A stretch of 64,000 nt of DNA, taken from the NCBI GenBank assembly GCA_015522145.1, contig WAMV01000007.1, positions 1-64,000 on the forward strand. The letters are read 5' to 3'. Every line of letters starts with the position of its first letter. The first letter of the stretch is position 1. The notes below the pieces were generated by a model. The model worked only from the letters and a program-made list of their open reading frames with translations, ran no database searches and was not told the DNA's origin. This document shows positions 1,764 through 45,599 of the stretch, one piece after another. The stretch comes from Candidatus Aenigmatarchaeota archaeon (lineage in GTDB: Archaea > Aenigmatarchaeota > Aenigmatarchaeia > CG10238-14 > WAMV01). The translations under genes were made by a program, and so were the position numbers.

Positions 1764-1907
1764 CGCCCGGGGTGGGATTTGAACCCACACGGGGCAGAGC
1801 CCCACCAGCTTTCTGTGGTACTCCTTCTCTTCATTGCTTGGGCTCTGAGAGGCGAGCTTCTTCATAAACTCCAGGCTGGCGCCTTTACCTGGTTCGGCCA
1901 CCCGGGC
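1764..1907 (-). tRNA. tRNA-Ser(GGA) with 58-nt intron at 37/38 (intron 1811-1868)
   Basis: Acceptor GCCCGGG/CCCGGGC, anticodon stem CCAGC/GCTGG, loop CT-GGA-G|A, long variable arm, T-loop TTCAAAT, G73; no encoded CCA. Confidence 0.95.
1811..1868 (-). ncRNA. Putative intron-encoded box C/D sRNA
   Basis: ATGAAGA(1865-1859), 11 nt, CAGA(1847-1844), 9 nt, ATGAAGA(1834-1828), 12 nt, CAGA(1815-1812). Confidence 0.7.
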
Positions 1908-44417: not shown

Positions 44418-45374
44418 ATGTGGTATATTAAGGCTAGAGAAGAAACTTTAGAAGAATTTGGAAAATCTCCTGAAGAAAGGAGTATAGGGGAGCTTATAGA
44501 ATCTGCTGTAGTTATTGTTGATAAGCATGCAGGCCCCACAAGCCACCAAATAACGCAATGGACAAAAGAAATTTTTAACGCTAAAAAAGCTGGTCATGCT
44601 GGAACGCTGGACCCACAGGTAACAGGAGTTTTGCCTGTAGCTTTAAATGATGCAACAAAAGCTATGATAGTTTTGATGGGTCTGGATAAAGAGTATGTTG
44701 GAGTAATGCATCTACATAAAGAAGTTAGCGAAGGTGTTTTAAGGCAAGCCATGCAGAAATTTGTTGGAGAAATAATTCAAGTACCTCCAAAAAGGTCTGC
44801 TGTAGCAAGAAGACCTAGGAGAAAAAGAGTTTATGTATTTGATATAGTAGAAATGGAAGGAAAAGATGTTTTATTTTATGTTAAATGTGAAGCAGGCGTA
44901 TATGTAAGGAAGTTAGTGCATGATTTGGGCCAAGCTCTAGGCATAGGTGCTCATATGACAGAGTTGAGAAGAACTAAAGCTGGTCATTTTGATGAAAAGC
45001 AAGCTAAGCCTTTAATCGAAATTAGAGATGCTTACGAAATTTGGAAAAGTGAAGGTGATGAAAGCATGTTAAAAGAAATTTTAATACCTATAGAGCATGC
45101 TATACCACATGTGAAAAAAGTGTTTGTTAAAGATACTGCTATAGCGCAAATATGTAATGGTGCCCCTGTTTACGCTAGTGGGCTCGTAAGAATACAAAAA
45201 GATATAAAGCCTGGTGAAATAGTCGGAATTTTTAGCTTAAAAAATGAATTGATTGCATTAGGCATAGCTAAAATGAGTGCAAAGGAAATGTACAATAAAA
45301 GTAGGGGAATTGCTGTAAGAACTGACAGGGTTATAATGAAAAAAGATGTTTACCCTGATTTCAGAAAAAAATAA
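44418..45374 (+). CDS. cbf5: H/ACA pseudouridine synthase Cbf5
   Basis: GPTSHQ, GHAGTLDP, ELRRT, C-terminal PUA domain. Confidence 0.96.
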   Translation: MWYIKAREETLEEFGKSPEERSIGELIESAVVIVDKHAGPTSHQITQWTKEIFNAKKAGHAGTLDPQVTGVLPVALNDATKAMIVLMGLDKEYVGVMHLHKEVSEGVLRQAMQKFVGEIIQVPPKRSAVARRPRRKRVYVFDIVEMEGKDVLFYVKCEAGVYVRKLVHDLGQALGIGAHMTELRRTKAGHFDEKQAKPLIEIRDAYEIWKSEGDESMLKEILIPIEHAIPHVKKVFVKDTAIAQICNGAPVYASGLVRIQKDIKPGEIVGIFSLKNELIALGIAKMSAKEMYNKSRGIAVRTDRVIMKKDVYPDFRKK

Positions 45375-45376
45375 AG

Positions 45377-45384
45377 TTTAAAAA
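45377..45384 (+). promoter_or_regulatory. TATA box for the leader-tRNA-Ser transcript
   Basis: TTTAAAAA after a purine-rich BRE-like stretch; spacing at the other tRNAs predicts a start near 45408. Confidence 0.55.
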
Positions 45385-45406: not shown

Positions 45407-45451
45407 TAGTCTCAAGGTCTGATAGCAAGATGATGAGCACTGGCTTTGCAT
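45407..45451 (+). ncRNA. C'/D'-type guide element in the pre-tRNA-Ser(UGA) 5' leader
   Basis: Guide TAGTCTCAAGGT, CTGA, 7 nt, ATGATGA, guide GCACTGGCTTT; guides complementary to 45483-45494 and 45550-45560. Confidence 0.8.
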
Positions 45452-45599
45452 GCCCGGGTGGCGGAACCAGGCTAACGCGCCGGCCTTGAGACTACCATGA
45501 GAATGTTGGCTTGACCCTGAAAAACATGATGATAAGGAGGTGAGTCGAGAAAGCCGGTGCCCCTTACGGGGCGTGTGGGTTCAAATCCCACCCCGGGCG
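45452..45599 (+). tRNA. tRNA-Ser(TGA) with 61-nt intron at 37/38 (intron 45491-45551)
   Basis: GCCCGGG/CCCGGGC, CCGGC/GCCGG, loop CT-TGA-G|A, central BHB helix CTTG/CGAG with 3-nt AAA bulge, long variable arm, G73. Confidence 0.95.
45491..45551 (+). ncRNA. Putative intron-encoded box C/D sRNA
   Basis: ATGAGAA(45497), 13 nt, CTGA(45517), 5 nt, ATGATGA(45526), 14 nt, GAGA(45547). Confidence 0.72.

Follow-up and report, generated by a model that had tools for sequence, protein, structure and literature searches.

A candidate box C/D-type guide for wobble methylation in the 5′ leader of an archaeal pre-tRNA-Ser(UGA)

A guide-like module upstream of tRNA-Ser(UGA)

The window that we analyzed is the whole 64,000-nucleotide (nt) stretch from contig 7 (WAMV01000007.1, positions 1 to 64,000 of the forward strand) of a Candidatus Aenigmatarchaeota archaeon (assembly GCA_015522145.1; 323 kb in 19 contigs, 34% G+C, estimated completeness of 81%). 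It contains an intron-bearing gene for tRNA-Ser(UGA), and directly in front of that gene, in what would be the 5′ leader of its transcript, lies a module that resembles a reduced box C/D methylation guide and is complementary to the anticodon region of the same tRNA. The locus is laid out as follows.

End at 45374: Cbf5-like gene, identity from an eye-read translation alone
45377..45384, + strand: TATA-like element TTTAAAAA, starting 34 nt before the guide core; putative promoter
45407..45418, + strand: guide 1, TAGTCTCAAGGT, antisense to tRNA nt 30 to 37 plus intron positions +1 to +4
45409-45418, + strand: conserved portion of guide 1 (its last 10 nt)
45419..45422, + strand: D′-type box CTGA
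45423..45429, + strand: 7-nt loop of the presumed K-loop
45430..45436, + strand: C′-type box ATGATGA
45437..45447, + strand: guide 2, GCACTGGCTTT, antisense to the last 2 intron nt plus tRNA nt 38 to 46; no D box after it
45448..45451, + strand: 4-nt linker GCAT, up to tRNA nucleotide +1
45452..45490, + strand: tRNA-Ser(UGA) 5′ exon; U34 is 45487, and target 1 (45483-45494) extends into the intron
45491..45551, + strand: tRNA-Ser(UGA) intron, 61 nt, at position 37/38; itself a C/D-type RNA
45552..45599, + strand: tRNA-Ser(UGA) 3′ exon; target 2 is 45550-45560

The tRNA at 45452-45599 scored 43.8 bits against Rfam and was called tRNA-Ser(tga) by ARAGORN with introns allowed. Default ARAGORN missed both intron-bearing tRNA-Ser genes of the genome; with introns allowed, both were found and several other tRNAs were misnamed. 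The tRNA identities used here were assigned from anticodon arms read by eye, and the 37/38 intron boundaries were set by hand from the anticodon stem and the bulge-helix-bulge reading.

Guide 1 and its target form a 12-nt duplex with a single G-U among 11 Watson-Crick pairs (−18.3 kcal/mol), a run that reaches 13 when the C of CTGA is counted in; guide 2 and its target form one of 11 nt, again with a single G-U, next to 10 Watson-Crick pairs (−17.2 kcal/mol). Counted upstream from CTGA, the fifth base (45414) lies opposite 45487, the first base of the anticodon, U34. An original prediction made from the sequence of this stretch had described the same series of elements (the guide 1 pairing, CTGA, a 7-nt gap, ATGATGA, and the guide 2 pairing) and had arrived at U34 by the rule of the fifth base; on recheck, all of its coordinates and pairings were correct. 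As that prediction had also said, guide 1 would mismatch tRNA-Ser(GGA) (1764-1907, minus strand), because the latter differs at nt 34 and at the start of its intron.

The longest antisense run between leader and tRNA (at most one G-U allowed) was 13 here versus 6 to 9 in 28 other tRNA genes of the genome, a comparison that set aside one tRNA copy with a 629-nt intron. When the 60-nt leader was shuffled by mononucleotides (n = 1,500), a run of 13 was never reached, a run of 12 appeared in 2 shuffles, and a run of 10 appeared in 24. A single antisense run is by itself only moderately rare, and this one-locus statistic is suggestive. Because it is not decisive, the case for a guide rests on conservation and covariation.

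Conservation in relatives

In a similarity search that covered this genome and 40 relatives (41 genomes in all), matches ran into the leader in two of them, G008 and G012, and the same leader module was evident in G002 when its locus was read. The exact pattern (guide core plus both boxes) was present in 22 of 118 genomes of the order, and a reversed-pattern control matched none of the 118. By family, the carriers were this genome (f1), 18 of 70 genomes in f2, and all 3 in f3; the exact pattern was absent from f4 (0/23), f5 (0/19), f6 (0/1), and f7 (0/1). A stricter pattern that also required the tRNA start matched 10 metagenome contigs, and one more archaeal metagenome-assembled genome (L058) was found to carry the leader module among the matches listed for a loose contig scan. 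Another archaeal match of that scan, L101, was rejected as a true locus because there is no tRNA there.

After identical rows were collapsed, the carriers from all scans amounted to 26 distinct loci, and in every one of them (26/26) the module lies upstream of a tRNA-Ser(UGA) gene with an intron at 37/38. The intron is 10 to 68 nt long in the 24 loci where it could be delimited; the other two loci, read by eye, have extra introns. These two (L188 in G067 and L197 in G107) carry the additional tRNA-Ser(UGA) introns downstream of the same leader module, and one of the extra introns lies within the 5′ strand of the anticodon stem.

The boxes vary within narrow limits. In an alignment of 15 of the loci (A1; 13 distinct rows), the TGA of the D′ box, the GAT of the C′ box, the GA dinucleotides of both boxes, and the final G of the loop are invariant. 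Elsewhere, the D′ box also occurs as TTGA or ATGA and the C′ box as ATGAAGA, ATGAGGA, or TGATGA, with 1 to 8 nt between D′ and C′ when boxes are taken at full length. The original prediction had named a lack of conservation of the boxes and complementarity in orthologous loci as a point that would count against it; guide 1 and both boxes are kept in the 26 distinct loci.

Covariation and length of the duplex

Of the guide, the search patterns constrained nothing but the portion opposite nt 30 to 37, and the bases further 5′ therefore provide an unbiased test. Intron position +1 was paired with the guide in all 26 loci (A-U in 19, G-C in 4, G-U in 2, and U-A in 1) and position +2 in 23 of the 26, while positions +3 to +6 were paired in only 9 to 11 loci, at or below a cross-locus control of 0.39 to 0.50. 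Even in the seven loci where the intron starts with something other than TC, the guide base still pairs with intron +1. Among the 13 distinct rows of A1, 17 cells had changed on both sides of the duplex, a number not attained in any of 500 shuffles, and the covariation score of 0.175 was reached in 1 of 500. Sliding the 3′ partner by one column lowered the share of paired cells from 84% to 46 to 48%. Leader-intron covariation in relatives, which had been proposed as a check, is thus present at +1 and +2.

Because pairing beyond intron +2 is at background, the guide duplex, as judged from these alignments, is 10 bp long, counted from the base next to the box and comprising nt 30 to 37 plus intron +1 and +2. 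Ten base pairs is also the duplex length used by archaeal C/D particles. The first base of the intron is other than A in 25 of the 26 loci; the guide would be specific to the unspliced precursor, because A38, which takes that place in the spliced tRNA, would be no partner for the guide base facing intron +1. The guide needs the first two intron bases, and its pairing is incompatible with the bulge-helix-bulge, as the original prediction had claimed.

Many carriers have a tRNA-Ser(UGA) intron of only 10 to 14 nt (L181-L185, L190-L193, L198, L200, L166, L168, L169, and L172). Such introns are too short for a guide RNA, yet their first two bases pair with the leader guide.

Leader position and reduced architecture

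In 10 of 15 loci, promoter-like hexamers begin 29 to 34 nt ahead of the guide core, and the same hexamers peak 30 to 36 nt before nucleotide +1 in 27 other tRNA genes of the genome. Because the two spacings match, we regard the module as leader-borne; it appears to have been inserted between an ordinary tRNA promoter and the tRNA. In 18 of the 26 loci (a count that includes L192, at 3 nt), the C′ box ends 0 to 3 nt from the 5′ end of the tRNA, too close for the tRNA to have a promoter of its own.

The element has several marks of an archaeal C/D small RNA (sRNA), namely internal D′ and C′ boxes with a short loop between them and a 10-bp antisense element whose fifth pair falls on U34. The terminal boxes are missing. 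There is no C box (RUGAUGA) between the TATA-like element at 45377-45384 and guide 1, and TGAWGA was found 1 to 7 nt upstream of the guide core in none of the 22 carrier genomes; the single such match among the 118 genomes was in a noncarrier, in sequence without a tRNA. Likewise, no D box (CUGA) lies about 12 nt after the C′ box, where guide 2 is followed by GCAT and then the tRNA. Searches against the Rfam C/D families gave nothing at gathering score, the leader matching two of them at 12.7 and 10 bits against cutoffs of 45 and 41. Judged by its sequence, the element is a natural "half-mer" with a single K-loop, consisting of one antisense arm and an internal D′/C′ pair, and the absence of terminal C and D boxes sets it apart from the C/D family proper. 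The original prediction had likewise seen in the leader a guide with D′- and C′-type boxes aimed at U34, and had described the loss of the terminal boxes as leaving half of a ribonucleoprotein (RNP); the fixed register and conservation speak for the former, and the box searches in carriers for the latter.

A canonical trans-acting guide (C box, the same antisense core, and a D-type box) was matched in 1 of the 118 genomes, at a site without a tRNA or a following C′ box, and we saw no sign that noncarriers use a standard guide of that form. A split or permuted tRNA gene, with the leader as the complement for trans-splicing, was also considered and rejected, since the pairing forms a plain helix over the splice site with no bulge-helix-bulge, and the tRNA gene is intact.

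The second antisense element

Guide 2 is found only in this genome and in G008 (2 of the 26 distinct loci). G008 has U41 in place of C41 in the stem, matched by a change of G to A in guide 2. G012, which belongs to the same genus as G008, is without guide 2, and L058 has a decayed look-alike. As a D box for guide 2 we considered an ATGA located 12 nt after the C′ box in G008 and dismissed it, as it has no equivalent here or elsewhere. Because no D box follows, guide 2 would select no nucleotide.

Guide 2 resembles the 5′ strand of the anticodon stem. It could compete with that strand for nt 38 to 46 and so free nt 30 to 37 for guide 1. From its sequence and distribution, guide 2 is probably a lineage-specific helper for unzipping the anticodon stem that selects no second site. 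The original prediction had made pairing with both splice junctions a central feature of the layout; both pairings are real at this locus, but with guide 2 present in so few loci and no D box behind it, the symmetry, on the comparison of loci, is a lineage-specific add-on and not part of the core.

Similar modules in tRNA introns

When the intron-bearing tRNA genes of this genome were read by eye and then scanned by script, a self-guide layout was found in five introns, those of tRNA-Lys(UUU), tRNA-Arg(UCU), tRNA-Glu(UUC), tRNA-Met(CAU), and tRNA-Trp(CCA). In each, a stretch of 8 nt antisense to the anticodon loop of its host is followed by one U and then by UUGA or CUGA; four of the five continue with a short loop and a box of the AUGA type. 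The intron of tRNA-Leu(CAA), where a 7-nt match was seen on reading by eye, was added as a sixth. In all six, several of which ARAGORN misnamed, nt 34 lies opposite the fifth base from the box. Because these copies were found without the leader pattern, they support the register independently. The six genes are as follows.

C3:2983-3099(-): tRNA-Leu(CAA)
C5:22084-22221(-): tRNA-Lys(UUU)
C8:5621-5737(+): tRNA-Arg(UCU)
C10:17769-17885(-): tRNA-Glu(UUC)
C11:6085-6197(+): tRNA-Trp(CCA)
C19:4778-4890(+): tRNA-Met(CAU)

Two of them, tRNA-Lys and tRNA-Trp, have two introns each. In tRNA-Trp, a C-type box lies in the separate upstream intron and a D-type box in the other one; in our reading of the sequence, the guide:target hairpin is closed by a kink-turn built from the two introns.

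The intron of tRNA-Ser(UGA) carries guides of a different kind, with the following parts.

45497-45503, + strand: C-like box
45504-45516, + strand: D′ guide
45517-45520, + strand: CTGA
45526-45532, + strand: ATGATGA
45533-45544, + strand: D guide
45545-45548, + strand: D-like box TCGA

A 13-nt guide thus precedes CTGA, 5 nt separate the two internal boxes, and a 12-nt guide follows ATGATGA. Conservation of both guide cores extends across families and includes f4, a family without the leader module. The 16S rRNA gene is not in this assembly, and the intron guides were compared with the 16S rRNA of relatives only. The homologous intron of G031 has perfect antisense runs of 11 and 10 nt to the 16S rRNA of the same genome, each stopping 1 nt short of a box; among 500 shuffled introns, 28 had any 16S run of at least 10. 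One site lies in a conserved stretch of the decoding region and the other in the 3′-terminal anti-Shine-Dalgarno sequence, which we take to correspond to A1408 and C1535 in E. coli numbering. A search of this genome for perfect targets of the four guides at first returned only the guides' own opposite strand. The sequence suggests that an rRNA-directed guide already occupying the intron may be the reason why the self-guide is located in the leader; against this explanation, carriers with an intron of 10 to 14 nt also keep the guide in the leader.

Several further tRNA loci showed features of this kind. The intron of tRNA-Ser(GGA) (1764-1907, minus strand) is 58 nt long and shows a complete set of four boxes, coherent variants of the usual ones (two copies each of ATGAAGA and CAGA), with 11-nt and 12-nt spacers, and the leader of that gene is short and has no guide. 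In tRNA-Thr(UGU) (C11:3257-3385[+]), a 12-nt intron spacer before CTGA pairs only 7 nt with the 3′ splice junction, a weak match that would put nt 39 opposite the fifth base. A strict four-box C/D RNA was detected just once in the assembly (C5:22027-22076[-]), a few bases 3′ of tRNA-Lys, a known dicistronic arrangement. There are two copies of tRNA-Arg(UCU) (C12:22454-23157[-] and C8:5621-5737[+]), identical upstream over the last 39 of 90 bases, one with the short self-guide intron and the other with a 629-nt intron that looks as if it bears an open reading frame (ORF); the latter may be an insertion of the homing endonuclease type or a strain variant in the bin. A genome-wide listing of 9-mers antisense to any tRNA and followed by an NTGA box consisted mostly of opposite tRNA strands and chance matches and was not used.

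Proposed mechanism and alternatives

Taking the register, the conservation, and the covariation together, we consider it likely that the leader guides formation of Um34 (ribose-methylated U34) in tRNA-Ser(UGA). The primary transcript would begin with a minimal box C/D-type methylation guide, made up of an antisense element of 10 to 12 nt, a D′-type box, a short loop, and a C′-type box. The two boxes would fold into a single K-loop that is bound by L7Ae, which in turn would recruit Nop5 and fibrillarin, and guide 1 would place U34 of the intron-containing precursor, at the fifth pair from the box, in the active site. Because the duplex uses intron bases and occupies a strand of the bulge-helix-bulge, methylation would come before splicing, and RNase P would then remove the leader. 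We infer each of these steps, from transcription of the leader through K-loop formation and protein binding to methylation. This genome encodes L7Ae (109.8 bits) and has an RNase P RNA (120.9 bits); among other carriers, all genomes checked for fibrillarin (8 of 8), for Nop5 (3 of 3), and for RNase P RNA (5 of 5) had the gene in question.

Several observations weigh against this proposal. The cross-locus control at intron +1 and +2 is already about 0.8, as most loci share both bases, and the covariation signal comes from just 7 of the 26 loci, those with a deviant intron start, in relatives that are not independent. The exact pattern is absent from 96 of the 118 genomes, and even with the carriers counted as a lower bound, this distribution of sequences shows that the leader element is dispensable for many relatives. 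True genes for Nop5 and fibrillarin were not found in the 323-kb assembly, where the only fibrillarin-family match was a partial one of 27.9 bits in a 204-amino-acid methyltransferase ORF that we read as isoaspartate-methyltransferase-like. Since relatives have genomes of 0.4 to 1.7 Mb, the two genes are probably in unassembled sequence. The minimum-energy fold of the precursor (−71.3 kcal/mol) keeps the cloverleaf and the bulge-helix-bulge, with the leader folded on itself; forcing guide 1 onto its target gives −68.0 kcal/mol in a nested model that breaks the acceptor stem. Finally, a lone K-loop lacks the second kink to be bound by the usual Nop5 dimer, and efficient natural methylation by a half particle is putative.

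The predicted folds bear on pairing in cis, which would be a pseudoknot in need of help, because the guide 1 pairing crosses the acceptor stem. Moreover, the K-loop lies within 3 nt of the end of the acceptor stem in the 18 loci noted above, far from the anticodon of a folded tRNA, and this geometry makes action in trans seem the likelier mode, with two precursors sharing a Nop5 dimer or with RNase P setting the leader free to act. By analogy, such action would parallel the conclusion reached for pre-tRNA-Trp and would fit the assembly of half-mers with Pyrococcus proteins and target RNA, as far as the available passages on those systems go. A broader scheme is conceivable, although we hold it only tentatively: the DPANN archaea of this order would use one-kink guides built into the precursors of their substrates, mostly in tRNA introns, with the tRNA-Ser(UGA) module in the 5′ leader and its intron taken in many lineages by a 16S-directed guide. 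Two precursors, or a precursor and a freed leader, would methylate each other's wobble base in trans on one Nop5 dimer, introns of 10 to 14 nt would persist as their first two bases complete the duplex, and wobble methylation would serve as a checkpoint before splicing.

Alternatively, the leader might be an antisense regulator or chaperone in which the K-loop merely anchors L7Ae and the pairing delays splicing or RNase P cleavage or protects the precursor. The pairing does cover the 5′ splice site and exclude the bulge-helix-bulge, the K-loop is 0 to 3 nt from the RNase P site in 18 of the 26 loci, the terminal boxes are missing, and L7Ae is also a subunit of archaeal RNase P, all of which would suit a regulator. 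A mask, however, could do without a fixed register, yet here the box invariably comes after the base that faces nt 30, which makes nt 34 the fifth; this holds in all 26 leader loci (where the search pattern partly forces it) and in the intron copies of six other tRNAs, and the duplex stops at 10 bp. We therefore regard a purely regulatory role as unlikely. Still less probable, in our view, is that a full C/D RNA gene or a transposed intron once stood upstream of the tRNA and that the leader is its decaying remains, with little or no function. Guide 2, present in 2 of the 26 loci and as a degenerate trace in L058, does look like a case of ongoing loss, box variants and spacer lengths differ by locus, and 96 of the 118 genomes are without the exact pattern. 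Neutral decay, on the other hand, would not leave guide 1 and the two boxes intact in three families of the order, with invariant GA dinucleotides and with a guide whose changes follow those of the intron start. Chance matches in AT-rich intergenic DNA could account for a run of moderate length (at least 10 in 24 and at least 12 in 2 of the 1,500 shuffles), but not for one of 13, which no shuffle produced and which the other 28 tRNA leaders, at 9 or less, do not approach. As a whole explanation, chance is contradicted by recurrence with covariation in 26 distinct loci and by the reversed pattern, with 0 matches in 118 genomes, and we give it almost no weight.

The prevailing view is that guide-RNA methylation requires an RNA with two kinks on which a symmetric protein dimer is held. 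If methylation by the leader is borne out, a conserved, natural one-kink guide on its own substrate would show how far guide methylation can shrink and how it manages in genomes under 1 Mb, and tRNA leaders would gain a role beyond that of being removed. Self-guiding from within a precursor would extend from introns, as in tRNA-Trp, to the 5′ end, and there would be a concrete reason for the retention of very short tRNA introns as well as a testable order of methylation, splicing, and RNase P cleavage.

Comparison with known systems

The original prediction had put forward the leader layout as one without a described case. We found no description of a leader-borne guide or of a natural half-mer in the searchable literature, which does not cover subscription papers, and an earlier description is possible. 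On the sequences compared here, the leader guide appears to be a conserved layout that would work like a C/D guide but lacks two features that define the family, the terminal C and D boxes. Its parts have precedents. In ordinary C/D RNAs, the internal D′/C′ pair forms a K-loop (PMC7994747). Methylation of nt 34 is itself known: free guides target this position in tRNA-Leu, tRNA-Met, and tRNA-Trp (PMC7994747), and Um34 has been reported in archaeal tRNA-Leu(UAG) and tRNA-Gln(UUG) (PMC7668247).

Transcripts that join a tRNA and a C/D sRNA are also known, namely tRNA-Val/sRNA8 of N. equitans, tRNA-Met/sR44 of Pyrobaculum, and those with tRNA-Ser of I. hospitalis and tRNA-Pro of T. tenax (PMC3491384, PMC6009581, PMC7994747). 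As in these dicistronic cases, guide and tRNA would here share one transcript, and the nuclease acting at the tRNA end would set one end of the guide. Where the available passages state a position, however, the dicistronic sRNAs lie 3′ of the tRNA, whereas the guide described here lies 5′ of it. The sRNA8 of N. equitans is drawn with all four boxes and the predicted target of sR44 is 23S rRNA, and none of these sRNAs is described in those passages as aimed at its host tRNA; the leader element is a half-module, and its predicted target is its host.

In its reduced state, the leader element is reminiscent of the 66-nt intron RNA of elongator tRNA-Met in N. equitans (PMC3491384), likewise an imperfect C/D element on a pre-tRNA of a tiny archaeon. 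That element is a stable RNA, it is intronic, one C and one D box have been proposed for it, and the passages at hand state no target. A structural counterpart is provided by the synthetic half-mer C/D RNAs of Pyrococcus, which have one kink motif and one guide, assemble with the core proteins, and bind their target, as seen in the crystal structure of a Pyrococcus RNP (PMC6239191). From what the source shows of them, the synthetic half-mers are laboratory constructs with a terminal C/D kink-turn, whereas the leader element is natural, with a presumed internal D′/C′ K-loop.

A close parallel is found in euryarchaeal pre-tRNA-Trp (Haloferax volcanii; Pyrococcus sR50), whose intron contains a C/D guide that also resides within the precursor of its own target (PMC7994747, PMC11408192) and directs Cm34 and Um39 (PMC7994747). 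In the portions of these reports that we could consult, the likeness extends to the use of exon as well as intron bases in the duplex, to the wobble nucleotide 34 as the aim, to the need for methylation to precede splicing, and to a second antisense element directed at the 3′ strand of the anticodon stem (nt 39 in tRNA-Trp). The two differ in that the pre-tRNA-Trp guide is intronic and has boxes C, D′, C′, and D, while the module described here occupies the 5′ leader and has only the internal D′/C′ pair. In pre-tRNA-Trp, both guides select a nucleotide, whereas here the second antisense element has no box and is not conserved.

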